Source: Psammoneis japonica
Taxonomy: Eukaryota
Length of the DNA stretch: 64,000 nt
NCBI GenBank assembly: GCA_008632985.1
Contig: QPGO01000123.1
Coordinates: 124,001-188,000, forward strand
Direction: 5' to 3'
A model generated the notes under the pieces. It saw only the letters and a program-made list of their open reading frames with translations. It searched no databases and had not been told where the DNA came from. Below, piece after piece: positions 18,169 through 44,190 of this stretch. A program made the translations under genes and the position numbers. The first letter of the stretch is position 1; every line of letters begins with the position of its first letter.

Positions 18169-18341
18169 GTTCCCTAGAGTGCAACTCCAACTTGTCAAAG
18201 GATGGTGGTGGCTATAATGTCTCCACCCACACTAGGCGCTAAGGTGCCTATAGAATACACACTCTAGTGTCAAGGGCTAACCGAGTCTAGTAGTTCAGGG
18301 TTTAAACTCTTAAACCCCAAATTGCTGGACTCGAGCTGGTC
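18169..18341 (-). repeat. Split direct repeat B2 (terminal, retains TpA)
   Basis: Aligns with 18672-18846. Confidence 0.92.
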
Positions 18342-18388
18342 CTTGTGGTCGAGCGGCTCGGTCGACACCTCCGGGCGGGTGGGCAGGA

Positions 18389-18671
18389 AAAAAGAAAATT
18401 TGTGCACCATCTAGCGTGTCGGCTGGTTGGTGCTCCAAATTGTGAGCTGTTGTGAACCATTGGTGGCGAAGCCAATCTTCGTGTCTTTTTCCAAATCCTG
18501 GTGTTGAATCAACGTGGGGGGCCACTTGATTGTTTGCATTGGCAGCGTTCCCATTGAGGTCGAGTGCCCGAGATCACTTTTTAATCCAACACCTGGTCCG
18601 GATCTGTCAAAGAACATCCGTTCTCAATTCATCATTTGTCCGAGAACCCGTCAATTGGGGCAAGTGATGAG
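18389..18671 (-). repeat. Split direct repeat A2
   Basis: Aligns with 25993-26276. Confidence 0.92.
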
Positions 18672-18846
18672 GTTCCCCAGAGTGCAACTCCAACTCATCA
18701 AAGGATGGGGTGGTGGCCACAATGTCTCCACCCACACTGGGTGCCAAGGCGCCCACAGAACACACAAACTGGTGTCAAGGGCTAACCGAGTCTAGTGGTT
18801 CAGGGTTTAAACTCTCAAACCCCAAATTGCTAGACTCGAGCTGGTC
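18672..18846 (-). repeat. Split direct repeat B1 (directly abutting A2)
   Basis: Aligns with 18169-18341; differences are mainly TA->CA/TG. Confidence 0.92.
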
Positions 18847-19800
18847 ACATCCGCCGGCAAATCGCGCCGTCCCTTCATTTCCAACCCCAGGTCCAAGGTG
18901 AGAACACCACAGCCCCGCGGCAAGTCCGCGGAGAGGGCCCTGGAAGGTGGAATGACAGTCGCATCCTCAAAGGATCATCCAAAGAGCTCACCGGAGCAAA
19001 GCCATCCGAGCCAGAAGACAGTGTTAGCAAGCCCTGCTTGGGCCAATTCACGCTGAAGCGCCGGAGAGGTAGAGGCACAGCAACGGCGGTCCAGGTCGTG
19101 GTCGAGCCACACAACGTGCCGCTCGAGAAGGGCCACGGAGGGTTTGGTCTCGTTGCCCAAACAAGCACTCATGCCAGTGGCAAACAATTGAGTGCTGAGG
19201 TCATCGGTGGTCCTGCACGGAATGTGCAGGAGCCGATTTTTGTCCATGACAGCAGCGCCGGGGCGTGCGATCATCATGTCCCACGCGAAGAACTGCGAAG
19301 CTGCACTGTGCAATTGTCACACCGTCCCAAAGGAGACGGGCTCCCCTTTCTTCCCTGGGCAGAGGCTGTGCTGTTCCTGAGCCCATGGCAAGGTCACCTT
19401 GGGCCCATTGGGGGGCCGGGATGGCGGAGTCGTCTTCAAAATGGGGACTTGAAACATGGACTCGAATTTGCGTGGAGCATTGAGTTTTTGTTGGCACTGG
19501 GCGTGTGTCCCAGATGACCAGGCATGAGCCATGTCTAGAACCTGCATCCGTTCTAATGCCATGAGCCACCAATCTCTAGACAAAGTGAGTTCTCAATCCA
19601 AAACGCTCCGGACCGTGCACTTCTCGCAAATGAAATGTGCCCATTGCCGGATCTTGGAGGGCAGCGTGAGCCCACCGGCATGCTTCCGTTGTGTTGCAAA
19701 CGGTGGCCCAGCCTTGAAACACCCAGGGTGGCAGCACACCCCACACGGTGAACATTGTGTGCCGGAGCTGAACAAAAAGCCGGTCCCCGCAAAAGAACAC
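18847..19800 (-). pseudogene. Tyrosine recombinase remnant, C-terminally deleted
   Basis: FWLGWLCSGELFG (GWLRxGE first catalytic box with R->C) and LEMKG, then runs into B1; HxxR and Tyr boxes not found. Confidence 0.65.
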
Positions 19801-19812
19801 ATCACCAACGGG

Positions 19813-21972
19813 TCACGAGTGGAGGCACCGCAGTGGCAGCCCGTGCAGTGTGTCAGCCTGTTTCTCATGCCACCGAGCCATTCCTGCTGGGGCATGTGGC
19901 TCCACCCTGTGAGTTGGAACAGACGGCAAGGTGCAATGGTGAGGGCCAAGACACAGGACAACAATGGGGATTTGCAAGTGCGGTGGATGTGCGAGGGGCG
20001 TCCACGGGTCTTGGGGAAATGTCGTCGGCAGCTCTTGGATGCACCGCAACAGCCCATGCCAGAAGGCGGGAATGACCCGCGGCACAAAGAGCAGCGTGGA
20101 CGTGGTGAGAGGGCGCTCGGCACACGCCGTGAGGAGGAAAGTGAGCAGCTGTCGTGCAATTTTTGGAGGCAGAAACCACACAGTGAGCCGGTCGAACACA
20201 TGCCGGGCTGTCCATGCGGCACTCCATTCCTGAAAATGCCAAGAGTCGTGCCGGAGGGCACTGGCAAACTCGCTTGCCAAGGCAGGGTCAGGGATCAAGG
20301 GTTCAAAAATCACCGCATTGAGCTGGCTCTGGTCCTCAAGTTCATGTGGGACACTGGCCCACACCCCGCGGCTCAACCCATCCGTCATCTGCCTGATCAT
20401 GACAACCCCCGGCACATGCACCACTTGAAGGCTGCAGCCCAATTCAAGCTCAATGATCCAAATCTGCTCAATCAGGGTGTGCAGCCCCGGTGATGATGAT
20501 GAGCTGGATGCTGCCACCCAGCACGTCACAAGGTTGTCAGTGAAGTAGAAAATGGTCACGCCCTGGACGTCCCGAGATGGCAACGTACGCAGGTGTGTGA
20601 GGGCAAGGAGGAGCATCTTCAGCTCCTTCCAGTTGGATGAGAAATGGTGCACTGCAGGGCTCCACTGACTCATCCACATGCGCAGGGACTGGTCCCTGGG
20701 CCCCAGTGTCCCGCCAGCTCTGGTGCCGCTTCCGTCACCCCACGTTGGGAGCAGGGTTGCAGAGTGCACCGAACGGGCTGTCCGCCCCTGACCACCATGC
20801 AGGTGCGCTTCCCACCAGCTCAGATCTCGGAACATGTCTGGAGTCAGTCGGGCTCTCGTACAGTGCAGATCAGCACCAGTCCCTGACCCCGGGGGATGCA
20901 CCAACGAGTGCAGTCTCCGAAGGTGTGTGTGTCCTAGTCGGAGTGGAGTGGCATCCAACAGGGATTCCAAGGTCCCAGAGAGCACCAACAGGGCAAGTCA
21001 AGAATGCTCCCAAGTCGGTCCGAGAGGCAGGACGTGCTGTGTCACAGCCAACCCCTGCTCTCGTTTATCCCTCGGAATCACCAACGTGGGGATTCCTGTT
21101 GTGTCAAACAGGAATCCGCAGTGCTTCGCCACTTGGGATGGCGGGTGACATTTCAGTGGATGGCACAACAGGCCAACATCCACTGCCACATCAAAGAAGA
21201 AGCTACGAGCCTCGCAGGCGCTCTCGTGCGTCGGTCCATGAATCGCAAAGTTGTCCACAAAGACCCACATCTTGATTCCCGGGAGGCCGTCACATCGCAT
21301 CAGGACCAGACCATGTCCCAACTTCGGGTCGTAGGTCTCAGCGCATGACAGCTCGGTCCACCAACTGTTGACCCGGGGAGTGTCACCAAAGAGCCGGGAC
21401 GCGCTTTCTCTGAGCTTCCTCACAAAGGCGTTCCCATGCCGTCCACCCAGGGCGGGACAATTCCCGCCCCCCACAGGCAGACCTAGCCAATCCAGCAATT
21501 CTTGGCTCAACGGATGCATCAACCCAAGCCATGGTCTGTCGTTAGGGTGCGTGGTGAACTGATGGAAAAAGTTGGAAGCATCGACCACCGCTGTGTAGCC
21601 ACCCTGGTGCATTTCATCCAGAATGTGCGTAACCCGGGGAAGGAATGCTGGATCGTTCCCCACCACTTCATTTTGACCACCACTTCGCATGTCGGCAATC
21701 ACTCTCCATTCACCAGGTTGCCCTGGTTTGGGGACGCAGAATGAGGGTGTTGTCGCCAGAACTGCTGAAGGATCGGGCACAACCCCCAAGGCACCGATGT
21801 CGGTTAACTCATCCACGAATTGCGTGGTGATCTGTAGCTGCTCTTCATCCATTGGCGCATTCGGCATCATCTTGGATTCCGGCGGTTGTGGGAAGTTCAT
21901 CCGGATCCCCTCTTGCAGATCGTCCCAATGTTCGGGGGGGAATTCCCACCACAGCACCTGCAAGTGGTGCAA
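19813..21972 (-). pseudogene. DIRS-type reverse transcriptase and RNase H
   Basis: VPKPGQPGEWRVIADM, VVDASNFFHQF, GLPVG, WVFVDNF, KHCGFLFDT; RNase H WGDGSG, SSNWKEL, FTDNLV, HVPG, TDGLSRG. Confidence 0.9.
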
Positions 21973-22193
21973 GTCGGTGCCCCCACATCGTCACAGTTGT
22001 TTCTGTGTCTCTCCAGGGCAACCACCCCTTGACTGATCATGTCTTCGCGTCTCTCACGCGGGTGCCGTTCCACCGCACAGAGTGGGTTCTCCAGTCGCTG
22101 CAGGTGCCAAACCCCGCCCTCAGAGAGATCCGGCGGCGTCCATTTGAATTCACCATGACCCGCATCATCCGACCCATTCTCCGATTCCTGGGG

Positions 22194-23330
22194 TCAAGCT
22201 GAGATGGGCTCGTTAGGTTTTGCAAGCCGGAGGGTGGGCCATCGTTCCGATTCCGGTTCCAACGTGAAGCTCCTTCCCACATGCTCCCAGTGGAACACGC
22301 TTGTGGTCGATCCAGCATCCATGCGGGCCTCAGGGATGTGCCAGTCCTTGGGAACTCCCAGTCCTCGCCCAAGCTCCTCCTGAGTGAGATGTCGAACCCG
22401 CTTGGCAGCACGAATCCAGGCCCCCGCCTTTGCAGGCATGGGCTCTGTTGCCGCTTCATGGATCCGGGCCCCGCGTGGGATCTCACCTTTCACACGTCGG
22501 ACGAGGCCCTTGGGCATGAGTGGGTTGCTCACAGCCCGGGGTCAGGTGCCTCTGTGCAGCGCATCCCAGGTCCAGCGAGTCGCACACGGCTTGGCTGCTC
22601 GTGCGACTGGGAGCCGGCTCTGGTCGATGGCGCCACCCACTTCGGCCACCGCTGCTCGCCGGAACCAAGATTCATAACCCAGCCTTGCCCAGCATGTGCG
22701 GGCGGCTTTTCCCGTGGGTCCGTTTTCCCAGGTGATTGCATGTGCTTGCCAGCTCTCTAAGACTACCTTCGGGCAAGAGTCTGGGGTGGTGGTGTCCACT
22801 GGTTCTTCCCAACGTTCAGCACAAGGCAGTTTCCTTGGTGTGTGGATAAACCCCCACTCCACCACCAGCAAGTCCACTGGATTCTGCGCCAAGAGGCGCG
22901 TCTTGACCCTGGGGCCGGTGACTGTCACCACCGCATCTGACTTGGGTCCAACGGGATTGCCTTGCCGGCGGACACACAGCTTCTGCTCCAGCCTTGGCCA
23001 CGCGACCTTCATGGTCTCAGCACCACACTCGAAGGTGCCGCACGACTTGATCCACGCAAGTGCTTCCCTGGGTGGAGGCACACTCTGCATCTCCATTCCC
23101 TCTACAGTCGGGTCCTCAACATCCTGGACACTCTCAGTGTGGACACCTCGAGGTCTGGTTCCATCGTCGCTTGTTTCCAGGGCTGACGGACAGTGGATCC
23201 AGTCGCGCCCGGCTCCCAGCAATCCCTCCTCCAGTGCCATCGTGTGGGATCTGTCCACCGCGATTACAAGAGTCCGCACACCAATCGTAAGCTTGCCCAG
23301 TGTGCAGGAGGTTAAGCAGGGAGTGAGCAA
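22194..23330 (-). pseudogene. Degenerate C5 cytosine-methyltransferase-like domain upstream of RT
   Basis: Ordered motif-like blocks FECGAETM (I), VDLLVVEWG (IV), PKVVLESW (VI), LGYES..GGAIDQSR (VIII), RHLTQEELGRGLGVPKDW (IX), TSVFHWEHVG (X); in-frame TGA at 22542. Confidence 0.55.
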
Positions 23331-25948
23331 TTGGGGTGCCTAATGTGATGTACACTGTGCGACGCGAGGAGGAGCGGTGCGGCTTGACAATTGGTTCTTG
23401 GGCCGGATGATCCAGGCCCAGTGTTCGCTCCGACTCCGGAGCCCATTCCATGTTCAGCTTGGAGGTGCGCATCTCGGAGATGAAGGTCTCAAGATCACCG
23501 TCAGGGTCCTCCTCAAGGTGCTTGGTGAGCTCGGCACACGCGGCCTTGACCTTGTCGAGGGTGCAGTTGGTCTTTGTCACCCCCCTCAGAAGCTTTCTGG
23601 CTTGTGATGCCGGGAGATCCTTGGCGGGGCAGTTGGCGCGTCCCTCACCGTGAAGATTGGTTCGGTGACACACGGCGCACCTGCGGGAGGAGCCCGTGGC
23701 CGTGCTGTTGTGGGATCCAGATTGGTTGACCACCGCACAGAGATTCTGCATCTGATCAAACAGGTCGTCACAGATTTCCTCATGGCGGAAGCGGTGTTGA
23801 TGAAACGCTTCACGGAGACAAACATGGCACAACAGGATGTGGGACCGGAAATTGGGTGCAAGCATTCAAGTGAGCCTGAGTCTTTTGGCATGGTGTTTGA
23901 CCATGCTCTCGGCCCACCCGTCCTTGCACTCCACCTCCCCCTCTTCAGAGTGTAGGGATTCCTGGGCCAGAGACAACAGAGCCAGATGGCATTCGCATGT
24001 CTTCTGAAGGACTCGAGGCAGAAGCCCGTGCCGCAAGCAGTCCTCAATGAACCGGGGCGAGCATCGTCGCTCGTAAAGAAAGGCCTGGAACCGGTCATTC
24101 TGAACCGGCCAGAGCTTCTCCCATGCTTTGGAGACTTCCTTCATGATCCGCATGAGGTCTGACCGGTTCTTGATCAATCCCAGAGTGTTTGAACGCTTGG
24201 TCTGCCAGGCACTGTCATGTCCGGTCCGGCTCCGCTCGAGCGCACCCAGATGTTTCAAGAGAGCTGCCACAAGCTCCTCCTTGCTGGGTGTGTTTTCAAA
24301 GAAATCGGCACCACACACACCTGGTGACGCCGTCACATCCACACTCTGATTCAGAAACTCCGCCCAATCTCTCGCATCCAGCCCCGGTGGGCACAGCAGC
24401 TGTTCCACTGCCGTCGCATTCAAAACCGCTTCGCCAAAGATCTTGGTGGCATCTCCAATCAATGGGTTGTTGCCCCAATGTTCCAAATTGAGCCGGCGTG
24501 TCTCCGCAATGCCGTCCTCATCCGTGAGAATGGGAGCGGCGGCCGAGGGTGCGGCAGGCGTGCCCACCGCCGAGCAGGGGGGAGGGCCAGTTGCTCTCAC
24601 CCCTGAAACTCCCGCGGATGGTGCAGGTGCAATCGGTCTGGCCATGGGAGGCACTGGTGACGGAACTCGGGGCACCAGGGGAGGCACTTCCTCCCGCCAC
24701 CGTGTAGCCTCGTCAAGAGTGGCGAAGGTTCGCACATGTCGGAACCCCCGGCTCAAAGCCAGGGCCACATTCGCATCAGAGGTGCAGACATGCTGCTCAT
24801 GTGAACCACGAACGAAGCCATGCCACCGTTCCCCCGGCATTGTGGGTTGACGACGATGCCACTCTTCTGCTTCTCGCTGAGTGGGGAATGTGGCGCGCAA
24901 GATGGCACCCACTCCAAGCCAGCATTCCAAGTCCTCACGAGCATTGCAAATGCGCCGAGTCTCGTCTGGTTCACTCAACCCATGCCAAAGGGGTTCGGGC
25001 CCCGGCAGCGACGGTCGAGATGCCATTGGAGGAGGTGATGGATTGGCAGCAACAGGAGTGGTGCCTGGCCCTGGGAAAGGGATCCTGGGGCCAGCAGCCC
25101 CCTGACCAGAGAGGTCATTCCGAGCTTCAACTGGACGTGTCCCAGTTGAAGTCGAGTGTCCCAGTTGAAGTCGAAACTGTGACAGGGTCCGCTGCCTGTT
25201 GTGACAGATTGTCTGTCTGCGGAGTGACCGGTGACAGCAGGCACTCAGTCGTGATCGGCGGGTCGTGCAATTCAGTCCCGCCGAAGGTCACCTGCCTCTG
25301 TTCTCGGTGGTCTTCTCCCCCTCGGATCTCATTGAGCTCCTGCTGAAGATTCCGGTCCAGATCCGCCATTGCTTGACGGAGCGGAGTGGCGCCGGTGAAT
25401 GACTCATCGTTGGTGGTTGCAACTGATTCTTCGTCCGGCTCTTGATCGTCCAGGAGAGCCTCAGCCACGCGTGACATCTCGTCGTTTTCGGCCGAGACCC
25501 GCGCGTCTCGCTCTTCGCAGGTCAATCCCATCCGGAGCCGGTCCAGTCGGCCGTCAACCACGTCCCTGTGCCGTCCGCTGGCATTGGGGAACCTCTCATA
25601 GAATCGAGGAGGGGCCCGGTGGGCTGTCTCTTGTGACTTCTTATGGTGCCCACGATGGGTACACCCGTCGCGGGTTGCCCCGCATGCGCAGTGAATCGTC
25701 TGCCCACACTCCTTGCGGGTCATGCAGACCCGGCACAGGTTGTCTGGAGTGAGGTCGACCAGGTCAGAGGGGGCCACCAGATCATCTTGGAGAGTCACAC
25801 TTCCCACTGACGAGGTCTCGGAGAGTTGTTTGTCCTTGACAGTGCCGTCATCCGCGTCGTCCGTGTCCAATGTGACGGTTTCAGGCCCAGAGACTAAGAC
25901 ACCGGTCGTGGTGGAAGAGTCCGGTGGACTGCCGTCGATGCGTGTCAT
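23134..25948 (-). pseudogene. gag-like ORF1 with N-terminal Cys cluster, two RNase H1 N-terminal (viroplasmin)-like repeats and a C-terminal zinc knuckle
   Basis: ORFs 25127-25948, 23866-25026 and 23134-23865; WHG..IC/VC..TF.T..EA..W twice; CAVCHRTNLH..CP. Confidence 0.65.
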
Positions 25949-25992: not shown

Positions 25993-26276
25993 AAAAAGAA
26001 AATTTTTTGCACTGTCTAGCGTGTCAGCTCGTTGGTGCTCCAAATTGTGAGCTGTTGTGAACTGTTGGCGGCGAAGCCAATCTTCGTGTCTTTTTCCAAA
26101 TCCTGGTGTTGAAAATCAACGTGGGGCCACTTGATTGTTCGCATTAGCAGCGTTCCCATTGAGGTCGAGTGCCCGAGATCACTTTTTAATCCAACACCTA
26201 GTCCGGATCTGTCGAAGAACATCCGTTCTCAATTCGTCGTTTGTCCGAGAACCTGTCAATTAGGGCAAGTGATGAG
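25993..26276 (-). repeat. Split direct repeat A1 (5' terminus of element)
   Basis: Aligns with 18389-18671 and retains more TA/CG. Confidence 0.92.
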
Positions 26277-27365: not shown

Positions 27366-29768
27366 TGTTATTAGTTTTCTCTACCGTCTTTACTGGATGA
27401 TATCATGGAATTCATCGAATCCAAATTAGCGTGAGGCATCGTCTGACTGGCAAGGTTGTTGTTGATTCAGAGAAAGAAGAAAGACACATCCATGACCAAA
27501 ATTTTTTGGGTGCCAAACGTGTCTTGTACTTGGAGACGGCTGACAACACTGTCCTGACTTGATCAAAATCAGAAGCGGTCAGCAAAGCGAGATTAACCTG
27601 TGTCCCTTTATCTTCCATGGCATTCTTGCTCACCACCAGAGAACAAACACAAGCTTCATGGCCTCCTTCTGCAGCAAATGTCAAAGCCGTCACGCCACAA
27701 AATGTGGAGTGATTTGGATTTGCACCACATTTGAGAAGAGTGTCCAAACATGAAAGCCATCCAGAATCAGATGCAGTCATTGACAGCTCTTGTTTTGACC
27801 TGCCCAGGTGACAAACACAGAGCAGAACAAAGTTGAGATCTCTCTTCCTCGTTGGATGTCACATTCCCCAGAGTCCCCAGACTGCATGCCAGCACACTCT
27901 CTTACATCATTTCGCTGATGCCTCACAAATCTCTGACATCCAGGTGAATGACCAAATTGAATTTCATCCACCATGGATCTAAATTTTGTTTGGCCCAACA
28001 CCAGCAAATAAATCTGCACAATGCAGATTTGCCACTCCCAGTGGGGCCATCAAGCAATGCAGACTCAGCTGAAGTCATCTTTTAAAAATTGGTCAACACA
28101 ACGCCAAGCTGCTGGCCCATGTCCTTGTTCTTGTTGCCTGTGGTGTGTGATGCCACCACTTGCTTGTTCACACAATTCAATGCAATCACCTGTTTGGTCC
28201 ATTCTGCTGCCAGCACCTTTGACCATGAACAAATCAACCGCACAGGTGAGGAACGTCTGTCACAGCTTCTCTGGCAACTCATTTTGCATGCTTGACATTG
28301 ATCAGTGATGTGACCCATGATCATTGTCTTGACACCCAAGATGTCCTCAAGTGGCTGCAATGCCACAATGAACTGCTCCAAGTTTTGTGCAAGCCAAGCA
28401 CACCACCTGATGAAGTGGAGAGATTTTGTTCAAGAAGCTGTTGCACTTTGCCCTGGCCCTCCTCCAAATTTTGCAGAGCCTCCTTCATTTCTCTTTGGCC
28501 TGTTTTGAGATCTTCTGGAGGCCTTCTGCCAGCTTTGACAACTTTTTGTCCAGTTCAGTGATTCATCCCTCCAAACCTGAGAAATCAAAAACCATTTTCA
28601 TTGTGTTTGCAGCGATCCTTTCAAGAAGCATCCTGTCACTTGTTGCACACAGTTTCTCCAGTTCCTTTGCATGGCTGTCAGCTCACTTTCCACAACTGTC
28701 TCACATTCTTGAGCACAGGGGGGCCTCATTGCTTGCACTGAGTTCTGTCCACATCCTTGAATGCAGTCAGCACAATTGGCATCTGAGGCTGCAAAAAGTC
28801 TGATCATCTTGGAGTCACCACCATCGGAGCTGTTCTGATCACCTTGAATGGCATCAACACATTTGAGCTTTTCAACTTCATGTGCTTGATGAGCCCAACT
28901 TCATCAAGATGGGGCATGATCCCACTCAGTCACTTGATCTGGCCTGCAATCTTTTTGACAATTGAAGTGTCCTGGCTGATCACTTGAAGTGCTGGCATGA
29001 GTGCCGCAAAGGCAACTCCAACAAATGGCGCACAGCTGAGCACCCCAGCCACTTCTTTCAATGTTTTGTTCATGGAAGTGACTGTCTCCCCATCAATTGC
29101 AAATGTTGTCACCAAGAAGCTGTCGTCAAAGCCTTTCAGCATACAACCAGTCAACCCAAGTTCATTGAGTGCAGTTGAAAGCTGGCTGAACACTTCATGT
29201 TTGTCACCTGCATTTTGTCTCACTTGTTCAGCACTGCTTTTTGCCTCTCTCACCTTGGTGGACAATTTGGCAAAGTCACAAATTGCCAATGTGCAACCAT
29301 CGATTGTTGTTGAGTTGGCTGCCACGGTGTTTGGTTTGTTTTCTCTTTCTGTCTGTTGCCCATTCTCTTGTAGAAAGACAACACCTTCAAAGCTGGGAAC
29401 ACTTTCAATTTTGCTTTTCCCTGGCACAGTGCGAACAGTTTCCAGCATGCAAGAGTTCCTGCCACCGACGGGTGTCGACTCAACATGCAACTCCGATCCA
29501 AGGGCGACACGAATGGAGGCGCGCAAGAGAATGCACTTGCTGCCACTGCTCAAAGCTTGTTTCACCTTTGTCATTTTTTCATCATCTGACAAAGCAAGAC
29601 ACTTGCTGTCGTCAGCCACAAACACATGCTCTTTGGGAAAACTGGGGCAGCTCGAGTTGTCAACACGACTTCGAAGATCCTCAGAACTTTAATTTCCTTC
29701 TTCAGATCATCGATCAACTCTTCCCAGTTGGCCCCAAACAGTTTTGCTTTCACTCCATGAGGAGCCAT
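26953..29768 (-). pseudogene. Hypermutated host-type gene: helical N-terminal region, ankyrin repeats, C-terminal domain
   Basis: LLKCGANPN..GVTALTFAAEGGHEACV ankyrin consensus (27412-27780); long coding-like frames at 28930-29768; TA-free from ~27450 to 29900. Confidence 0.6.
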
Positions 29769-30227
29769 GGGAATGATGTTGAAGCTGCTTTCACAGCACG
29801 CACCCCACGTCAAACAGATTCTGTCTCGCCTGTCCAAGATCCAAGCGATCGATCTTCAATCTCAACTCATCAAAAATCACATTAAGCACAAGAAGTGGAA
29901 GCATTTAATGCTGGCTAGCAGCAGCCATCATGCAGCATCTATTTTAGGTATGAACACCCCCTCACTCGAGCGAGCGAGGAGAATGAATTCAGAATCATCT
30001 CAGTGGCAGTGGCGATCTGTCTGTACGATGGTTTCTACGTACGCATGTTTTGTACTGTCCTCCGTCCGTGCCACCTCCAGCCCGATTCCCGTACCAATTA
30101 CAGACCTCCCAAGCCGGGAGTGCCCGATTCAAGACACGATTCAGAAATTCAGACGAGTAGCGACGAGCGACGACACGACACGACACACGACACAACACAC
30201 AACACATAAAATAAAATTGTACATACA

Positions 30228-32102: not shown

Positions 32103-32279
32103 TCTGTAGTCGCAGCCACTTTTGAGAGCAACAAATGATATTTTAGAATAAAATGAAGAGTGCATCTAGACTAGAAACCCCGTTGATTTCTTTTATTGAC
32201 CGGATGTAGTGGGCAATTTTATGCGCGACTTAGTGTGAACGCAGATTATTTGAAGATAAGGTTACAAGTTCTGTCTCCC

Positions 32280-33578
32280 ATGAGAAGTTGGTTGCTGCTT
32301 TCAGGCAATGGATTCAAGATGCAGAAGTGACCAGGGTGCACCAAGCCATGTTTCTTCCCAACAAGCACTGAAACACCTTTGAACCAGCCAAACCCTCTGG
32401 TGTCAGTTGCGCCCTTTGCCCCTGGTCACCACAATCCTTGGCTCCACCCACAGATTTCTTCAAAAAGAATTTTCCACTTGATCCCTTTGAGCTGGTGGTG
32501 CCATGGCCCTTTTGTGTGCTCATGTCAATGCTGACATCATTCACCTCATGGGGTGTTGCTCTCAGTGAAATGCTCCATTGCCTTCGTGTCCAAGCTGGTC
32601 ATGTCATGCAAAATTGTTGTCCCAAATGCTCTCCAGGGGCAGGCTTGAAAGTGCAAGGCTGGGAGAATTTTAAAACAAATTGGGGAGTCTCCCAGACAAA
32701 AAAGGCCGGGGCCCAGGTTTGGGGGAGTGCTGCAGCACTGGCCTCTCTGCTCTCCTCCCAAACAACAAAAAATGCCCTGCAAGACTCTTTCCTCTCTCAA
32801 TGTGCTCTCCCCAGTGTCACTGGCCCACCTTTTGTCTTCCACAAAGTTGTCCAGGAGCTGGTGCTTGGCTGGCTCCTGGTGGGTGGTCTGGAGCTTGAGC
32901 TCTGAAAATGGACCTCGTCTGTGCCAACAGGTGTTTGGAGCTGGTGCCTCCTGCGTGTGCTGTTTGAAATGACAGCACCAGCCACCACAGAATGGGGAAG
33001 ATGATGCAAGGGCTGTTGATCAGCTCAAGTTTGTTCCCACCATGGACAGAGGTCTCAAGCCTGTCTGCACCAGAGACCACTCAACACAACCAAGGCTTGC
33101 GGCCATTCTTTGTCATTGTTGCAACAAGAACAACGTTGTGAACAGAAGAAGAGTTTTCTTGAAGGATCCTCCCGCTTGCCCCAGGAGCTGGCAAGAATGC
33201 TCAGCTGGCTCCCAGTGAGCAGTCTGGAGCTCAAGCTCTGCAACTGCCACCAACTGTTTGGAGCTGGAGTCAGCTGTGCTGTTCCTTGAAGTGGCGGTGG
33301 CCGCAATCTCTCCTCCCACGCTGTTGGGGCACATCAGTGCTGCCGTAGTTGTGGATTGAGTGCACGGACTGTTGCGATGATTTTGCCACATTGCGTGCAT
33401 GCATGCATGCCGGCAGGGCCCCACATCAACCCAACCATCAACCCCATGACATGACAAGCACAACAACAGAAGCAGTGCCTGCCACTGGCAGAAGCAGCAG
33501 AATTGACGAGGAGAAGAGCACTGTGGGAGGCGCCTTGATGACGCATGGTTTCAATCATGACGAAAATGACAACGATGA
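32280..33578. other. TpA/CpG-depleted relic adjoining the Copia 3' LTR
   Basis: TA nearly absent; includes the mutated left part of the segmental duplication. Confidence 0.75.
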
Positions 33579-33583
33579 GCTTT

Positions 33584-33985
33584 TGTGGGCACACGGCAGT
33601 TTACGCCGCAGAGATGGAAATGGTGGCAACAGACAACTTAGGAGGTGTGAATTGACCAGTCGCTAAATTGTGAGAACAAAAACTGCTCCACTCGACAACC
33701 AACAAGAATTTGTAAAGAACGAGAAGTGACCCACATTTGCGCTGAACTCAATGCAGATGAACACAGTGAAAAGACTTGGCAGGAATGAGAAGTTCTTGAT
33801 TGCACAAAAGAAAAGAAGAAGCGGGGCTCAATTCTTGATTTGAACCCAAGACCTCCGATCTCATTCGTTTCTCGAGCTGTGATTGGGTGAGTCGTTGATG
33901 GTGGTTGATGGCGGTTTCTGAGCGGTCATTGTCACACGCAGGACTTGATGGCACACTGATGCTTGAACATGTGTGTGTTCTCACA
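33584..33985 (-). repeat. 3' LTR (402 bp, heavily TpA-mutated)
   Basis: Aligns end to end with 39009-39413. Confidence 0.95.
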
Positions 33986-33992
33986 CTCCCTC
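33986..33992 (-). other. Polypurine tract GAGGGAG
   Basis: Immediately precedes the 3' LTR on the minus strand. Confidence 0.75.
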
Positions 33993-34012
33993 ACACCGAA
34001 ATGTCCAAGTTG

Positions 34013-37000
34013 TTGCCATCCCTGAAGCAAAAGACGATGGCGAGTGAATGTCGACAGGTCCGGCATTTTTGTCAGGAAGTCAGCCTGTTGGAGTTTGGTT
34101 CCAATGGCTTCTTCAATGAGCCTGGCAGAGAGGGCTGGAAGCTCCCTGGTGGTCACCACTTTCTTTGGTGTTCCATCCTCATTGACAAGTCCCAGATCAA
34201 CAAGAATGCTGTTGATGAGGTGAGGTTGGGCCAAGTGACATCGATCCTTCTCCCTCTGAATCTTGACTCCAAGGCATTCGTCAATGGTTCCTTCGTCCTC
34301 CACATCGAATGTGGTTTGCATCAACTTGATGACCTTGTCAATTTTTGCCGCAGACTCTTTGTCAAAGACAAGACAATCATCTGTGTAGACCAGGAGGACT
34401 GTGGTTCCTCTGTGGAAGACGCATTCATCGAACTCCGATGGAACAAAACCGAGTTGCAACAAACCGGCATGGAGATGTTTGCACCAGGTTCGTCCACTGT
34501 CATGTCTGCCGCAGATGTTCTTCTCAATGCAGAGACAAAATTTGTTGCGATCAATGCCAGGAAATGTCACTCCCTCAGGTGGCTCCATGAAGGTCGGTCG
34601 TGGAATGTCCACTTGTGGATGCGCAAGGACGAAATCAACTTGTCTTGAATGCCATCCATGCATGACACACAGATGCAGAAACAGACGGATCGTTGTCCAG
34701 GACAAAGCTGGTGCATGAGTCTGGTCACAGTGCTTTCCGGGAATCTGCTTGTGCCCTCCAAGATCAAGTCGACTCTTCCACTTGTAGACTTCTCGTGTGT
34801 GAATTCGGCGCTTGCGCTTCATTGACCACACTGCTGGCAGGATCGTCTCACGTCGGGTGCATCGGATTTCTCGCATGGTTCCCAGTGATCACGAGCAGTG
34901 TGGTCTTGAATTTCCTTCACCATGGCCTCTTTGAACTGCTCTGCATCTGGCTGCTTCATCGCTTTGTGCATGCACATGGTGTCAGGATCAGCAGAGGCCT
35001 TCAAGGAGCAAGCAACAGGATCGTCAAGATCTGCTTGAAAATCTTGCTCTGAGTGCATGTCTTGGTCCAGTGCTTCGAAGTCGGCTCAACATGAGACAAC
35101 ATTGGCCTGCCGTTGCAGTTCCGACTCGATCATGCATTGTGTTGGCTGAACAGTGCATCCAGACCGTGTTGTTTGCACTGCTGGTGGAGGCTCTGGTTCG
35201 GGCACTTCGGATTCCGGCAGTGATTCTGGGGTCTCAGAGGCTCCCTCATTTGTTGCATTTGGCGCATCTTCTTCGTCTTCCACCAGTTCATCCGGTGCGG
35301 TCGCCTCCACAGGTGTTTTGGGGGTTGGCACCATGGTGTGCATTTGACGTGGTTCACGTGGTCTTGATGCGTGCCGCTGTTCCGGTCTTCTTGGTGATTC
35401 ATGGTTGAAGTTTTGAGTCTTGGAGAAAGTGGCAGATCTGCTGCCAGCGGGACTCAGTCGCACGTTGGGATTTGAGCGTTTCGATGATCATCAAATCTCA
35501 CGTGATGTTGTGGTGAGACCATCCCCGTGGCGAGATTTAGAACCAGAGCAACTGAACGAGAGTGTCTTGGTGATGGTCCAAGGTGTGGACCAACTCGAGA
35601 GCGAGGGTCCCACTTGGGCACAGCGTTGTTGGCTTGCAATTTGCTGTTTAAAATGTAGACTGGGCAGGCGAATGGATGAAAGTGCCAAATTTTGGGTTTC
35701 ACTGGTGCTTTTGAGAAAAGTTCAATCGGCAACACTTGCTGACCAGTTCTTGGCACACAGTTGCGCACAGCATTCGCGTGTCGAATGGCGCAGGGCCACA
35801 GAGCCACCTCTGCTGCTGCTGGCCATCGATGTTTAGCATGCATGAGTTGTGTGCAGGCTGAATCTTGGAGGTCGGGGATTCTTTTCTCGCAAATGCCGTT
35901 TTGAAAGTGTGCATTGACTCCACAGAAGGACATTGTTTGGTTTGCATCCTTCACTGCCTCAAGGCATGCATTGTCCGCGAAACGGCCATTGTCGGCATGA
36001 CAGTGACGAATGTGAACTCCGAGGGATCGGGAGCATGCTTCAAACGCGAGTTTCGCTGCCACTGTCTCAGCTCCAGTCAATGTTGTTTGTAAATAGACAA
36101 AAGAGAAGTCACTGCAGTGGTCAACGAATGCAGGGCGTGTCTGCAGCGTTTTGTTGTTGCCCAGCCTTTCAATTGGACCATTGGACCTGGTGTTGTCGCG
36201 TCGAGTTGGTCCACCGACACGCACTGACCAGGCTCAGCAGCTTTGAATGTTTTGTTTTGTTTGTTGTCCCCTTTGACTTTCCAAGGTACTTTTGTCGCTT
36301 TTCCGAATCGACAGGCAGCACATTGAGGGACATGGCATGTTGATGGACGACGAGGCAGGTCTCCACTGCAAGCCACAGCTTGCATGCGCGAAAATGGGAG
36401 ATGACCGAGTCGACAGTGCCAAAGCAGCAGTTCGTGGGATGGATTCGCAGGCGTGATGATCTCTTCATTTTCGATGAATCGTTCACCCTCTGAACCGTCC
36501 TCTGACAGGTTGAATTCGACTGCATAGGGTCAGACGGAGGTGTTGATTGATCCGCATGGATGGCTTCCTCGTTCGGGCTAGTTGCATCATCGGGCACTTC
36601 GTCAACCGGAACATGAGTCGGAACAGCAGGTTGCTTGGCATGATCCGAGACCCCGTCGGGCGGAGGAGCATGATTGTGAGCAACAGCAGCGTCGGGTGTG
36701 TCGTCGTCAGGCGGAATGAGGTGTGCTTGGAATGCACAAAAAATTTTGTCACGACGACAGTCGCATGTTTCACATGGCGCCTGAAGGGACGTAAAAGAAG
36801 GGGCGGAGCGAAAGACACCGACATTGCTTTTGTTGAGGGGGACCGACTGCGTGCATTTTTGGTCCATCCACTCTAAAATGATGCGGTTGCTTGTGGTTGT
36901 AGCACGAGTCCCTTCTTGGGTGCGCTCTTGTGGCTTGAGAGCTTGAGCCAGGTGTTGCGGAGACAGGAGCCGAATCGGGAGGTCGGGCACACAGCAGATG

Positions 37001-38919
37001 CCGGGTGCATTCAAGTCATGTGTTCATCCGAGGTCGTCTTGGATGGGCCAACACACAGTGCCTTTGCATGAGGTTGACACATTGCCGGATGCACCCTTGA
37101 CGTTGACATTGACCTTTGTTGGTGTCTGGATGAAGTCTGACATCAAGTTGGTTAGACAGCAGGAGGCGTGGTCATCGATGCCAACAAGGAATGAGTTGGC
37201 ATTGCAGCCATGGTCGTTGCAGGTTGAGCGCCGTTCCGCATCGGTGGTGGAGGAGCATCCGACAACCAGTTCATGGGTCACGTGGACCTCGATGACCTTG
37301 TGCATGACCGCGCACCATGTTTGCATCAGACACATCGTCGGCGGCAAGCAGAGCCTTGCTTGCACCGACTCTGGGGTCTTCGGACTCTGGGCTTGGGTTT
37401 GAGGTTGAGGTGGAAGGGCTTGGCTGAGTCAGACAAGGAGTGCAATGGATCACATGCACTGCTGATCACATTGGCTGCGATGGGAACTGCTTTCATCAGA
37501 ATGGTGTCCACAATGATTTCATCAGTGCAAGCCAAGATCGCGAATGGTGCAACAAGTGGTGTGGTGCAGATCATCTCCAAACCTGACCGCCACTTTCATT
37601 TGCCTTGGGCCTGTCCAGTCATGTCGTTGACACCGACATTCGCCATGGAAGCGGTGAGAGCATCGGACGTCGGCTGGTTTGGGTTGCCGGTGTTCCGGTT
37701 GTCCGCTTTCTGCTTGGCACGACAGCCCTTGCTCAAGTGCTGTCCCCAGCACTTGTGGAAGTCGCAATGCTTCCATTCTTCTCCTTCAAAGGTCTTCACT
37801 TTGGGTTCTCCGGGCTGAGGTTCGACGCTGCGCCAAGTCCATTTTCCTTCAAATTTTGGTTTTTCACCTTTCTTGCATTTGGTGGCGTTTGAGGACTTCT
37901 TGGCCTGGCTGGCGTTGGAAGGTTTCTGGCCCAATGACCGCTGGGGTGATCTGCGCAAGCGTTGGTTCCAGAGGTCGTTCACTTTGGCACGAAGAGTGAC
38001 AATTTGTGCTTGTTCCTCGGTTGGTTCGTTCCACTTTTCATTGAGGACGAGGGCTTGACATTTCTTCTCAGCGCGAATCATGAGTTGCTCATGGGCAATG
38101 TTGACTCCATCATCATAGTCGTCGTTGATTTTCTCCATGCACTTTGTGAAGTTCTTGTCTGCGCATGCTGCATGTCCCTTGAACAGGTTCGTGATGAGAT
38201 CGTTGGATGTCTCTCCTCAGCTTGACAGGGATTTAATCCTGTCCCTCACGTGCTCGTTGAATGCCTTGACATCGTGGTTGGCTGTGTTGACCATGTGCTT
38301 GTCCAAGGATGCGAGCTCGGAACGGACATGGGAGGCTGCAGCGCGAGTGTCAATCTCGGCCTTCGAGAGCAGAATTTTGAGGTGCAATGCCCCGCAATCT
38401 GTGTCTCCGACGCGATGCTGCTTGGATTCGTTGGCCATGACTTGCTTGGCAGCTTCATCCACCAGAGTTGTGAAGGCACAGGTGCAGCTGATGGTTGTTC
38501 TGGGTTTCACGATTCTGCCCGTTTATGTGGGCAGCGGACACCGTGTGGATCTGTTCCGGTGTGATGTTTCCGCAGGATGTGAGCATGTTCCGGTTTTCAG
38601 CAGTGGTGCCAGCTGCTCCCTCATTGATGTTGATCGTTAGGATGTCGTTCCAACCAAAAGCTTTGGACCTTGTACGAAGTTCATTGAGCAATGCGCGGAT
38701 GTCAGGCTTCTGGGTGTTGAACGTGGTCGGCAGAGGTTCAGCAGATGTCTTGAATGCGTCGGCATCGCCTCGGCGACTGTGGTCAAGCAGTGCATCATGG
38801 GCTAAGGCTGGTGAGCGAGCAAAGTTGCCTGCTGGAGGGTTGTTCTGGGCATCGATAAGAGGTTGGATGGCGGCCGGAATGGCTGCAGCAATCGCGGCTG
38901 CGATCTGTTCGGCGTTCAT
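34013..38919 (-). pseudogene. Copia gag-pol remnant with frameshifts, Tyr->His/Cys changes and an RT/RNase H deletion
   Basis: PR GIDDHASCC; IN VSVDQL, HCHADNGRF, QNGICEKRI; RT VDFVLAHPQ, KNICG, LVYTDD, ECLGV; ends QQADFLTK..LQGW. Confidence 0.9.
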
Positions 38920-38992
38920 GATGTCGTCGTTTCGGCGTCCACGACGTTGGGCTCTGGTTTCTGCAACAATTTTGAACTAAGTCAGGTCTCTA

Positions 38993-39008: not shown

Positions 39009-39413
39009 TGTGGGTATACGGTGGTTTATGCCGTAGAGATAGAAATGGCAACAACAGACAACTTCTTGGGAGGTGCGAACTGACCAGTCGCCAAATTGTG
39101 AGAACAAAAACTGCTCTGCTCGACAACCAACAAGAATTTGTAAAGATCGAGAAGTGACCCATGTTTGTACCAAACTCAATACAGATGAACGCAGTGAAAA
39201 GACTTAGCAGGAACGAGAAGTTCTTGATTGCATAAAAGAAAAGAAGAAGCGGGGCTCAATTCTTGATTTGAACCCAAGACCTCCGATCTCATTCGTTTCT
39301 CGAGCTGTGATTGGGTGAGTCGTTGATGGTGGTTGATGGCGGTTTCTGAGCGGTCATTGTCACACGTAGGACTTGATGGTATACTGATACATGAATATAT
39401 GTATATTCTCACA
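39009..39413 (-). repeat. 5' LTR (405 bp, TpA largely retained)
   Basis: Aligns with 33584-33985. Confidence 0.95.
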
Positions 39414-39418
39414 GCTTT

Positions 39419-41001: not shown

Positions 41002-41515
41002 CTAGTTCTGGGTGGCACTAAAGTCAACAACTACGTCCGTGACGTCTTCGAAGTACGAGTAAGGTCCCTCGCGAAGAACAGCGGCCATGGTCTTCTCGAA
41101 ACGGCGGTGGAGCTCGGCGGTGTTACCGGGAATCACGGTCTCGAGCTCACGTTCCTCTCCTTCGAGCTTGCGGCCTCCATAGCATAGGAAGCAGTTGCCT
41201 CCATAGACTCCACCGCCCCAGTTCCTTCCCGGGAGCTCCCGGTGAACCGAGTCACTACCGCGGAGAGCACGGTTCGTAGGCTCCTGCTGAGTCTCGACGA
41301 TGAAGGAGGTGGCTTCAGTCTGCTCCCCAGTCGCATGGGAATGGACGAGGTTGTAGGTATCAACAAACATGTTCTGGAAGTACGTGGTCTCTTCAGGGGT
41401 CATCTCGCCGGACGCTAATGTCGAAGGTAGCGCACTCGTGGATGCTCTGAGTAGCATCGATGGACTTGGAGGAGACGGCAAGAGCCACGAGGAGGGAGAC
41501 AAGGGAGAGCTTCAT
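41002..41515 (-). CDS. Secreted RxL-motif protein, paralog of 42520-43053; frameshift near 41415
   Basis: Signal peptide MKLSLVSLLVALAV; colinear with the paralog except a ~5-nt deletion (pseudogene or assembly error). Confidence 0.75.
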
Positions 41516-42519
41516 GGTTTCGGCTGGTGAGTGTTTTCTGCTGTGAAAATGATCAAGAGAGAAAATTGTGAGCTGTTTTGAAGGCGAAAAGTGAAGCGAC
41601 GAGAATTGAGTGGTCGCGTAAACGAGTACCAAGACTTGTGTGGACTACGACTAGCACTCATACATTTCAACGCGAAACTCTGACAATCGATCTGCCGGAC
41701 ATTTGGTTTCGTTCAATTCTACAGGGACTTGGCAGACAAAGAAAGTCACTGAGAAATGATGGACCAAAACTCGGAGTCGATGGGCTGTTCTCTAAGTGTT
41801 GTATGTTGGTCGCATTTTGGTTCCCTAAAACAAAACGCGACAAGCGTTTATTCGCGATCACTATGGCTGACTTACTCAAGACATCTCTAAGTAAATTTTC
41901 CGCTAGAGGTACGTATTGCCTTCACTTAGATGAGATTATGATGGCAGATTTGAATTTGAATTCTTTGAATGAAGATTGTGAAAGCTAATTTGCTCGCATT
42001 CACGCCTATGTAAAAATTTAATTAGGCGGATCGTGAGTGTCCCAATGTCCTCTGCACACGCGAGCAACGGTATTTTAACTACTGGTGCCAAACCTGCAAC
42101 GTGACTGGTCGCGTTCTTTAAGCGAGAAATTTAATACCAAGGTCGAGGAATGTTACTTAGACGAAGTCGTGGAAAAAAATGGCGGGAAATTGAGGCTAGA
42201 ACGGACTCCACCATATTATTTTTGTCGGCGTGGCATCGATACGGCTTTGCCGAGTACCCTGGACCATTTTGGTCCTCTTTCAGCGGATGACTGTGTTCGA
42301 GAACCGGACTCTGTACAATTCCACAAGAAGGAATGCCAGTCTTCGCGACAATATGGAAGGGTACGACAAACTCCTGTACCTTACGTCACCTCTGGTAGGT
42401 GTTTTCGTTCATCAAAAGTTGCGTTGGACCGAATGAGCAGTCACTTTTTCGCCTCTCGAACTTCTCACAATTTTTCTCTTCTGTCTTCTGACAACAAGAA
42501 ATCACTCTCATTCGCAACC

Positions 42520-43053
42520 ATGAAGTTCTCCCTTACCTCCCTCCTCCCCATTGCGGCTCTCGCCTTCGCCAAGACTGCCGCTGCTACTCAGAGCATCCAT
42601 GAGTACACGACCTTTGACATCATCGGAGCGTCCGGTATCATGGCCTCCGAGGAGGTTTCCTACTTCGAAGCCATGCTTGTGGACACGTACAACCTCGTCC
42701 ACTCGCACGAAGAGGGTACTCAGACGGAAGCGACCTCCTTCACCGTCGAGACTCAGCAGGAGCCTACCAACCGTGCTCTCCGTGGTGAAACGACCGACGA
42801 ATCGGCTCACCGTATGCTTCCCGGAAGGAACTGGGGCGGCGGAGTCTATGGAGGCAACTGCTTCCTCTGCTATGGAGGCCGCAAGCTCGCTGATGGAGAG
42901 CAACGCGAGCTTGAAGATGCCATCCCAGGCGACAGTACCGAGCTTCACCGCCGATTCGAGTTGACTTTGGCCGCTGTTCTTCGTGAGGGACCCTTCAGCT
43001 ACTTCCACGATGTCTCGGACGTTGTCGTCGACTTTGGTGCCACCCAGAACTAG
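42520..43053 (+). CDS. Secreted protein with multiple RxL processing-like motifs flanking a conserved Gly/Cys peptide
   Basis: Signal peptide; RAL, RML, RKL and REL motifs; strongly biased codon usage; inverted paralog ~1 kb upstream. Confidence 0.85.
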   Translation: MKFSLTSLLPIAALAFAKTAAATQSIHEYTTFDIIGASGIMASEEVSYFEAMLVDTYNLVHSHEEGTQTEATSFTVETQQEPTNRALRGETTDESAHRMLPGRNWGGGVYGGNCFLCYGGRKLADGEQRELEDAIPGDSTELHRRFELTLAAVLREGPFSYFHDVSDVVVDFGATQN

Positions 43054-43759
43054 GTTCTCTTTGGTGAAACCGTTTCATTCCTCAAGCTACTTATTCATCT
43101 GGATGTGGTTCTGTTTTCGGTTTCTTGGGACTCCCGGGTCGCGAGAGACCATGTTTCTGTGTTGGGACTAGTGGTGTTTGCAATCATGATGCTTTGCTTT
43201 CGTCAGCCATTGAAGCAGCTTTAGAGTAAACCTGAGAGGGATAACTACTAGATTTGTTATCCTTACGGTCATATCTGATCCCCAGCCTATATATCAATTG
43301 CTGTTGCGTTCTTTGTTAACCTATAAGCGCCGCTTCTGTTGCGTTCTTCGAGCTCATCGTGAAACCCCACACCTCCCTCCGACACGGAAGGAGAGGGTAC
43401 CGGTACCGTAGAGCAGAGCATGGGCGCCGCGTCTGCGAGCTGACGCGTTGCTGGCCACACGATTGTTCATATTAATTTTTTCGCATTCTGTCATTTTTTT
43501 TAAGTAAAACTACGTCATCACAAGCGACCAAAAGCGCTGCGGCTAACGGACAGAGCGATCTTCTTCCCACTTGCTCTGCTCTATGCTGGAGCAGCTGCTC
43601 TCTCTCTCTACTCTAGCCAGAGAGAGAGAGAGAGAGAGAGAGAGCTGGCTGGCTGGCTGGCAGAGACTCTCTGCTCTCCAGCAGAGGACCATCACACTGC
43701 CAGCAGTGGAGGGAGCAAACTGCACAATTTGCTGGAAAAAAGAGACAAAGGCCACAACA

Positions 43760-44190
43760 TTGTTGTCGACTTTGGTGCCACACACAACTGGGTTCTCTTG
43801 GGTGAAACCGTTTCATTCCTCAAGCTGCTTGTTCATCTGGATGTGGTTCTGTTTTTGGTTTCTTGGGACCCTTGAGTTGTGAGGGACAATGTTTCTGTGT
43901 TGGGACTGGTGGTGTTTTTGCACCAATGGTGCACACACTGCTTGCGCCAGCCACTGAAGCAGCTGTTTGGAGCAAACCTGAGTGGGACAACTGCCATTTG
44001 TTGTTCATGCAGTCATGTCAGATCATGTCAGTTGCTGTTGCATTCTTTGTCAACCTGTTGGTGCAGATTCTGTTGCGCTCTGTTCAACCTCATCATGAAC
44101 CCCCCCCCCCCCCGATGCCACAAGCGCATGGCGGTGGCAGTCCACGAGCTGACGACTCTGCTGGTCACACGAGCAGTTCAGACCAATTTT
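43760..44190 (+). repeat. Hypermutated duplicate of the 3' end and UTR of the 42520-43053 gene (source 43022-43480)
   Basis: Colinear alignment; stop TAG->TGG and all alignable TA converted. Confidence 0.9.

Follow-up and report, generated by a model that had tools for sequence, protein, structure and literature searches.

Strand choice at TpA steps follows the 3' flank in hypermutated repeat blocks of Psammoneis japonica

Introduction

Repeat-induced point mutation (RIP) of Neurospora and other ascomycetes places dense dinucleotide-specific transitions in chromosomal repeats and foreign DNA and so disables transposons; the changes are C to T, mainly at CpA, and create TpA. A local hypermutation that is restricted to TpA has been described in Bigelowiella natans, where it affects integrated giant-virus and virophage DNA (Mettrop et al., bioRxiv 10.64898/2026.01.13.699255). 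Its rate, measured in living lines, is about 1000-fold above background, and the preprint proposes an adenine deaminase, for which amphioxus ADAT2 is cited as precedent (Mettrop et al., bioRxiv 10.64898/2026.01.13.699255). Our search of the literature on TpA hypermutation, covering Bigelowiella as well as diatoms and transposable elements, found only this 2026 preprint. Here we describe a 64,000-nt stretch of the Psammoneis japonica contig QPGO01000123.1 (positions 124,001 to 188,000; hereafter the window, whose own coordinates are used throughout), in which TpA steps have been erased from blocks that hold an RVT_1 retroelement, a Copia element and a transposon-like frame. The restriction to TpA, the block structure, the choice of strand at each step and a hierarchy of flanking bases are established below. 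The agent is probably a base-flipping enzyme, most likely a DNA adenine deaminase.

Adenosine deaminases with characterised flanks are the other points of reference. Escherichia coli TadA needs TACG in an RNA loop and recodes Tyr (TAC) to Cys (Bar-Yaacov et al., 2017, PMC5630033). ADAT2/ADAT3-dependent mRNA editing in Fusarium shows U at position −1 in 86% of cases and, at +1, A (39%) about level with G (37%), followed by U (17%) and C (7%); the best triplets are UAA and UAG (Liu et al., 2016, PMC4817773). Human ADARs, as quoted in the same article, prefer G at +1 (PMC4817773). Amphioxus ADAT2 deaminates A in DNA, with a GAA context in E. coli DNA and a preference for hairpin loops (PMC10354150).

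Results

TpA steps are depleted in sharply edged blocks

The window is eukaryotic DNA of about 49% G+C in which transposon remains are interspersed with gene-like frames. The remains comprise the RVT_1 retroelement (18.2-26.3 kb), the Copia element (33.6-39.4 kb) and the transposon-like frame (57.1-61.8 kb). Segmentation by a two-state model gave 11 depleted blocks (31,739 nt) with 137 TA steps, against 1231 in 10 normal stretches (32,261 nt); in half of the window about 90% of the TA steps are gone. Rho TA is 0.00-0.13 inside the blocks and 0.44-0.91 in the normal stretches, exceeding 1 nowhere, and the longest TA-free run measures 1077 nt. The depleted blocks have a surplus of TG and CA, and the older ones are depleted of CG too. 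Their edges are sharp: RVT_1, RVT_2 and transposon-like frames lie within them, and the kinase, dehydrogenase and other gene-like frames lie in the normal stretches.

Young repeat pairs record changes at TA

Self-BLAST and MAFFT alignment yielded four young repeat pairs: a 175-nt split repeat of the RVT_1 retroelement, a pair of terminal repeats, the two long terminal repeats (LTRs) of the Copia element and a 360-nt direct repeat (Table 1). In every pair only one copy is mutated, and block edges do not track repeat edges. Purine/pyrimidine (R/Y) identity within the pairs is 97.6-98.5% as against a nucleotide identity of 88.6-92.7% (97.7% and 88.6% for the split repeat), and 64 of the 67 transitions in the three youngest pairs fall on pyrimidine-purine (YR) steps, that is on TA or CG. 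Eleven TAs of the outer copy of the split repeat read CA (8) or TG (3) in the inner copy, and 14 TAs of the spared direct repeat read TG (11) or CA (3) in its partner, with none in the reverse direction. The Copia LTRs differ at 15 TA sites, with products of both types (8 CA, 7 TG), and the terminal repeat inside the block, relative to the one outside, shows TTAG>TTGG twice and CTAG>CTGG. Over the four pairs, TA in one copy stands against TG or CA in the other in 46 columns.

A purine/pyrimidine-coded self-search of the window for repeats hidden by transitions found no pairs beyond the self-BLAST set. Two old duplicates (26529-27335/39413-40239 and 41002-41594/42441-43053; 75% identity, normal blocks, ordinary spectra) were excluded from all counts. 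A few sites show TA against CG (39168 and 33740; 41124, 42637 and 42937; for example GTAC against GCGC). At these double differences both positions of the step have changed, and a single-strand hit followed by replication does not account for them.

The adenine of TAA loses to its rival on the other strand

At a site xTAy, the 3' neighbour of the top-strand A is y and that of the bottom-strand A is the complement of x. An earlier note on this DNA had counted 13 cleanly aligned sites at which only one strand reads TAA, and had found the A of the other strand altered at each. Recounting among the 46 columns gave exactly 13 such sites with conserved flanks (ATAA>ACAA three times, CTAA>CCAA twice, GTAA>GCAA once, TTAG>TTGG five times and TTAT>TTGT twice), and the outcome was the same in 13/13 (binomial p=0.00024; 95% interval for a TAA win 0-0.25). 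A fourteenth site, with a differing flank (43264, TTAC>ATGC), is concordant. The rivals that won over TAA were followed by G in seven cases, T in five and C in one. Two poorly aligned sites that had been mentioned as possible exceptions were located at 33624-33626 against 39049-39051 (TGG/CAA) and at about 43322 (TATAAG/TGTTGG); both are ambiguous, since either could conceal a TAA hit or be CpG decay.

Strand coordination was checked by runs tests, which were non-significant (P=0.53, 0.15, 0.42). Because products are also mixed within each alignment (8 TG and 6 CA over the 14 one-TAA sites), strand-wise runs do not explain the choice of strand. CpG decay in the same alignments, which has the same geometry (xCGA, TCGy), served as a control; it splits 3:7 and readily yields xTGA, as compared with 13:0 in the TAA contests (Fisher p=0.0005). 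The bias is therefore not made by the alignment method or by later loss of TGA. The proportion of pair sites that changed was 30/32 with no TAA half-site, 14/17 with one and 2/4 with two (trend p=0.027).

Contigs of sequencing run X1 on 18847-38846 were also inspected at the 40 variant places listed out of 2207, at all of which every covering contig differs from the window. Among these, 23635 is concordant (TTAG in the contig, TTGG in the window) and 27809-27810 holds an ambiguous TG/CA pair; neither was counted.

Rates follow the order pyrimidine, G, A at the 3' neighbour

A Bradley-Terry fit to 53 contests, from which five contests whose flank is itself a mutated TA were left out, gave relative rates by the base 3' of A of 1 for T, 1.31 for C, 0.45 for G and 0.09 for A. 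G was beaten by C or T in 17/22 contests (p=0.017) and won 7/7 direct contests against A. The target had first been written as TA(C/T/G); TAA is indeed the worst context, but the other three are not equal, the order being T~C > G > A.

The TAs that survive within the blocks carry the same signature and allow an independent estimate. An enrichment for TTAA, TTAG, CTAA and CTAG, which the earlier note had remarked on, held up on counting: YTAR accounts for 63/137 TAs in the blocks versus 230/1231 outside (odds ratio 3.6, p=3e-11). Taking as baseline the 15,558 TAs found in 76 unmutated Copia loci from metagenomes leaves the bias unchanged (p=1.7e-16; n=136 survivors, as one boundary TA drops out). 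Survival depends on context (chi-square p=1.5e-13), being 0.30 for TTAA, 0.28 for CTAA/TTAG, 0.24 for CTAG, 0.012 for ATAC/GTAT and 0.009 for ATAT. A maximum-likelihood model with two additive half-sites and one exposure per block reproduces all ten site classes, with rates of 1 for T, 0.55 for C, 0.31 for G and 0.23 for A; equal rates are rejected (p=8e-19). Choice and survival thus share the order pyrimidine > G > A but put different sizes on the effect of A, roughly tenfold from choice and roughly fourfold from survival. Where depletion is deepest, none of some 22 expected CTAG is left and three TTAA and eight CTAA/TTAG remain, which agrees with A being worse than G. At +2, A is enriched 1.55-fold among survivors and T stands at 0.42-fold (p=1.2e-9).

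Choice at a single site cannot separate the rule that an A followed by A loses from the rule that an A after TT wins. Were attack favoured by a T at −2, TTAA would be the first to go; since it survives best instead, ATAT survives worst and ATAA becomes ACAA, the effect lies at +1 of the A and not at −2. Read on the other strand, this effect 3' of adenine is an effect 5' of thymine. Tetranucleotide product gains, blocks against normal stretches, were also compared; the TAA-context products ATGA, GTGA and TTGA gain least, with CTGA as the exception. We give this comparison no weight, because transposon and gene composition differ and gains and losses are consequently unbalanced.

Avoidance of TAA is relative

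The claim that the A of TAA is avoided holds as a relative rule, TAA being the least favoured context, but not as an absolute one, as TAA hits do occur. TTAA>TCAA is seen twice in the young pairs (18311, 43317). Further contests came from codon-level inference with homologues mapped by tblastn (76 for the Copia element, 108 for the RVT_1 element and one for the transposon-like frame). Scoring was limited to codons that reveal a hit on either strand (Tyr to Cys or His; Ile ATA to Met or Thr), and 26 contests were gained in this way. TAA wins among these at 34717 (Tyr to His, TTAT>TCAT) and 58981 (Ile to Met, ATAA>ATGA) and loses at 58003 and 59173. Pooling direct and codon contests, TAA loses 15/17 (p=0.0023; 95% interval for a win 0.015-0.36). 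Leu TTA>TCA at 58024 and 21744 was left unscored, as only the outcome that hits TAA is visible there.

Additional direct contests were sought among relatives of the Copia element. The best match among 5.8 billion proteins was 64% identical, and hence no unmutated copy of the same family was available; the 79 metagenome Copia loci contained no close pair of a mutated and an unmutated copy and added no direct contests.

Mutation ran from TA to TG or CA after integration

Conserved Tyr columns give the direction of change. Within the Copia block 13/20 read Cys (9) or His (4); the RVT_1 element, whose homologues are 50-56% identical, has 7/12 reading His (4) or Cys (3) and two further columns reading Trp; and in the transposon-like frame 8/11 Tyr of its relative P0199 (57% identity) read Cys (5) or His (3). 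As Tyr of the homologues has become Cys or His in the blocks, the direction is TA to TG or CA. The edge of the Copia block falls within the element; together with LTRs that differ by both types of product, this places the process on chromosomal DNA after integration.

At 23774-24356, within the RVT_1 block, run X1 has two equally deep 583-nt contigs (27.5 and 27.7, roughly half of single-copy depth); one matches the window exactly and the other has 53 differences. Haplotypes of the hypermutated retroelement may therefore differ by about 9% here, which would mean recent or ongoing mutation.

Elements and blocks of the window

The Copia element has its coding strand on minus, broken frames, an RVT_2 domain and a read depth of roughly 10-20x the single-copy depth; the top homologues of its polyprotein are named after diatoms (Nitzschia, Attheya, Aulacoseira). 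Its flanks, 33446-33575 and 39416-40239, are a diverged duplicate of 26391-27335 (about 75% identity; 87-92% when purine/pyrimidine-coded), so the element inserted into one copy of an older duplication. The transposon-like frame consists of 57088-60015 and 60016-61797 (+), with a single stop between them, and spans 1568 codons. It has no Pfam match and represents an uncharacterised transposon-like protein family; P0199 (545 aa), which covers 58% of the first 975 residues, is its sole database relative.

Blocks differ in their loss of CG. Rho CG is 0.25-0.38 in 8756-10204, 27610-29882, 43615-46448 and 48185-50072, where CG was lost along with TA, and 0.12-0.19 per kb in 62000-64000; the two retroelement blocks retain most CG (0.64-0.68). 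The contrast points either to two processes that keep different clocks or to two distinct classes of silenced DNA. The gene-like frames of the window include a protein kinase, a saccharopine dehydrogenase, a seryl-tRNA-synthetase-like N-terminus and others. Two gene-like frames, 41002-41594 (-) and 42441-43053 (+), form an inverted pair of 76% identity in a normal stretch; the pair has no Pfam match and shows an ordinary substitution spectrum.

Table 1. Repeat copies and TA-depleted blocks of the window.
Feature	Position	Strand	Remarks
Outer copy, 175-nt split repeat of RVT_1 retroelement	18168..18341	+	keeps TAs; normal block up to 18311
Inner copy of 175-nt split repeat, mutated	18671..18846	+	16/16 transitions at YR steps
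Terminal repeat copy, inside depleted block	18389..18671	+	self-BLAST, alignment
Terminal repeat copy, outside depleted block	25993..26276	+	self-BLAST, alignment
Copia LTR, mutated, within block	33584..33985	+	33/35 transitions at YR steps
Copia LTR, largely spared, outside block	39009..39413	+	self-BLAST, alignment
Spared copy of 360-nt direct repeat	43019..43377	+	self-BLAST, alignment
Mutated copy of 360-nt direct repeat	43757..44113	+	inside depleted block 43615-46448
TA-depleted block	1..414	.	small, at window edge
TA-depleted block	3739..4518	.	small
TA-depleted block	5179..6062	.	small
TA- and CG-stripped block	8756..10204	.	includes TA-free run of 1077 nt
TA-depleted block over RVT_1 retroelement	18312..25894	-	41 TA/7583 nt, rho TA 0.13, G+C 0.59
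Older TA- and CG-stripped block	27610..29882	.	7 TA, rho TA 0.04, rho CG 0.27
TA-depleted block, most of Copia and 1.3 kb left of Copia	32264..38977	-	28 TA/6714 nt, rho TA 0.07
TA- and CG-stripped block	43615..46448	.	6 TA, rho TA 0.03, rho CG 0.25
TA- and CG-stripped block	48185..50072	.	includes TA-free run of 1065 nt
TA-less block	52052..52895	.	small, zero TA
TA-depleted block with long transposon-like frame	57925..64000	+	41 TA/6076 nt

Discussion

We propose a mutator that acts on chromosomal DNA after integration, block by block, and converts TpA to TpG or CpA. The two adenines of a step, one per strand, are separate targets, each with a rate set by the 3' bases of its own strand: T or C at +1 is best, G allows about half that rate and A about a tenth to a quarter, and A at +2 gives added protection. 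At ATAA or TTAG the strand on which A is followed by A therefore nearly always loses, and TTAA, made of two poor half-sites, survives best and is still hit. Such behaviour points to a base-flipping enzyme whose recognition takes in the target and the base on either side. It would most likely be a DNA adenine deaminase that is recruited to silenced repeat chromatin and turns A into inosine, which is read as G; its flank preference, T-A-pyrimidine, sets it apart from TadA, ADAT2/3 and ADAR. That an enzyme is at work had been suggested in the earlier note from the form of the target, and the suggestion has gained, since a base-specific enzyme would be expected to show both a flank rule of this kind and a nearly complete confinement to TpA.

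Several points weigh against this account. The direct contests form a small sample of 13 sites drawn from four alignments, and two of these sites (33639 and 33664), where the TA is kept by the otherwise mutated LTR, have an assumed polarity. TAA won 2/4 codon-inferred contests as against 0/13 direct ones (p=0.044), and at least three TAA>TGA events took place beside a better rival (37173, 58471 and 59404, seen as Asn>Asp or Lys>Glu after T); a further TAA>TGA change after T, at 34765, lies within TTAA. Asn>Asp and Lys>Glu after T were not scored as contests because the opposite outcome is silent; no more than 27 C|AAx columns can hide that outcome, so that the TAA share comes to about 0.1 or higher. 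Codon inference can itself be confused with natural replacement of Tyr by His or Ile by Met, above all where P0199 is the lone homologue. The survivors fail to separate A from G (p=0.23), and the survivor rates assume that the ancestral context mix was that of unmutated sequence. No deaminase domain was found in the 39 frames of the window that were scanned, and the flank rule fits none of the characterised adenosine deaminases compared (TadA, fungal ADAT, amphioxus ADAT2 and ADAR). Finally, sequence alone cannot tell whether the altered base was A or its paired T.

This last point leads to the main rival of an adenine deaminase, thymine-directed chemistry, which we judge unlikely. An enzyme would modify T in 5'-TpA, the product would mispair with G, and T would become C. 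The flank rule then reads ATA > GTA > CTA > TTA and every observation is symmetric, as the choice and survival data fix only the base pair that changed and the relevant flank. Hydroxylation of thymine with a TpA/TpC bias occurs in dinoflagellate DNA, and 5-formyluracil mispairs with G; we know of no thymine modification that acts as a repeat-confined mutator. The published account of a TpA mutator prefers adenine deamination, as a hypothesis only (Mettrop et al., bioRxiv 10.64898/2026.01.13.699255).

Error-prone patch synthesis of the Pol eta kind, in which G is inserted opposite a template T after W by a polymerase recruited to repeat chromatin, appears improbable. It had previously been left open on the strength of two LTR transitions that fitted AA>AG, and it is less open now: the two resolve to an indel-edge column and to the ambiguous TGG/CAA triple, and AA is not hit. 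The WA hotspot of Pol eta does include A to G at TA. However, only 3/67 transitions in the three youngest pairs fall outside YR steps, two of them at indel edges, and the rate depends on the +1 and +2 bases, which are unmade at the time of misinsertion. Near-saturation of TA over kilobases at about 2% R/Y divergence would moreover call for a great number of patches and hardly any other error.

It is slightly less probable still that a TpA mutator operates without any TAA rule, with 13/13 an accident of a small sample or a by-product of alignment or polarity and with survivors that reflect ancestral composition. The 2:2 split of the codon-inferred contests speaks for it, and CTAA products show no clear shift in the tetranucleotide gains. 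The probability of the direct result (p=0.00024), the 3:7 split of the CpG control, a survivor bias that persists unchanged with either of two independent baselines (p=1.5e-13 and 1.7e-16) and the dose trend by TAA half-sites within pairs all argue against it.

Editing of RNA or cDNA before integration, by an ADAR- or ADAT-like activity or on single-stranded cDNA, and fixed by reverse transcription, is very unlikely. A 5' U preference is common to ADAR and fungal ADAT (PMC4817773), but the LTRs of one element differ and its strands were hit about equally (8 CA, 7 TG), the effect extends to a direct repeat that is not an LTR (43019/43757) and to blocks in which no retroelement can be recognised, and the +1 preference is opposite to that of fungal ADAT (A~G > U > C) and of ADAR (G first) (PMC4817773). 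A reversed polarity, with RIP-like C to T changes creating TA from CA or TG in the seemingly spared copies, is hardly credible, because although pair differences alone do not give direction, it is the TA-poor state that is abnormal (rho TA 0.00-0.13 in blocks against 0.44-0.91 outside, never above 1), and in the blocks Cys or His stands where homologues have a conserved Tyr.

Returning to the flank-ruled mutator, its products bear on coding capacity. As TAA becomes CAA rather than TGA, and TAG becomes TGG or CAG, stop codons are erased rather than exchanged, which explains why hypermutated elements retain long open frames; it fits the many long open frames that the blocks carry on either strand and the 1568-codon frame with its single stop. 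The fingerprint T-A-Y > T-A-G > T-A-A, with A protective at +2, offers a basis for screening candidate enzymes and argues against ADAT2/3-like, TadA-like and Pol eta activities as they stand. No genome defence is known to us in which a natural enzyme deaminates the adenine of chromosomal DNA, and such a natural editor, with its motif defined, would also be of interest for base editing.

Three of the metagenome Copia loci, L066 (1-4098), L068 and L071 (948-4409), are almost free of TA (rho TA 0.02-0.04, rho CG 0.11-0.19); rho TA is 0.34-0.89 in the remaining 76. The TA-free loci have unbroken polyprotein frames of at least 1365 and 1154 codons, and L066 and L071 are 78% alike, with a dN/dS of 0.17 over 1122 codons. 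About half of the conserved Tyr columns in L066 and L071 read Phe (11/23 and 10/20), with Cys or His in only 5 and 3, and for this reason the contests that these two loci provide are few. This looks like a live Copia lineage purged of the TA target under selection; alternatively, it reflects a host-wide compositional bias. Tentatively, the T-A-pyrimidine fingerprint could be that of an undescribed DNA-editing enzyme, either an adenine deaminase of new specificity or a thymine modifier, that serves an algal, chromatin-targeted genome defence against which transposons, the TA-purged Copia lineage included, are in an arms race; we consider this wider picture possible and, on balance, doubtful.

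Each of the known systems shares part of the pattern. Pol eta resembles the mutator in changing A to G where T precedes A; its WA motif covers AA, which is not hit here, and dependence on the 3' base is not expected of it. TadA likewise has its target A after T or U and before C, and recodes Tyr to Cys. The comparison with TadA, which had been drawn earlier, fails at +2, as G follows 16/64 surviving TAC half-sites versus 151/687 outside and TACG was not lost preferentially; unlike with TadA, TAT disappears no more slowly than TAC and the substrate is chromosomal DNA. Fusarium ADAT2/3 has T or U immediately 5' of the target A, as here, but A and G are the worst bases at +1 in the window, unlike for Fusarium ADAT2/3 and ADAR, and those enzymes act on RNA. 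Amphioxus ADAT2, the precedent cited for the Bigelowiella proposal, is a eukaryotic tRNA deaminase shown to act on A in DNA; its reported GAA context, in contrast, has neither a 5' T nor a 3' pyrimidine, and no excess of A/G differences after G is seen here. RIP likewise sets dense, dinucleotide-specific transitions in chromosomal repeat DNA, but in the blocks described here TpA is lost and G+C goes up (0.59 in 18312-25894).

The hypermutation of Bigelowiella is the nearest match. As reported in the preprint, it too consists almost only of A>G and T>C changes, all on TpA and giving TpG and CpA; it is confined to foreign or repeat DNA, with neighbouring genes spared, and its TpA-poor, CpA- and TpG-rich clusters are enriched in reverse-transcriptase and DDE domains. 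Bigelowiella is a chlorarachniophyte and belongs to a supergroup other than that of the diatom-like genome described here. Its mutator was measured live in mutation-accumulation lines, whereas the present one is known from its scar alone, and the main text of the preprint analyses no flank beyond the dinucleotide. The depletion is far deeper here, with rho TA of 0.00-0.13 in the blocks as compared with 0.45 for the Bigelowiella virus region.

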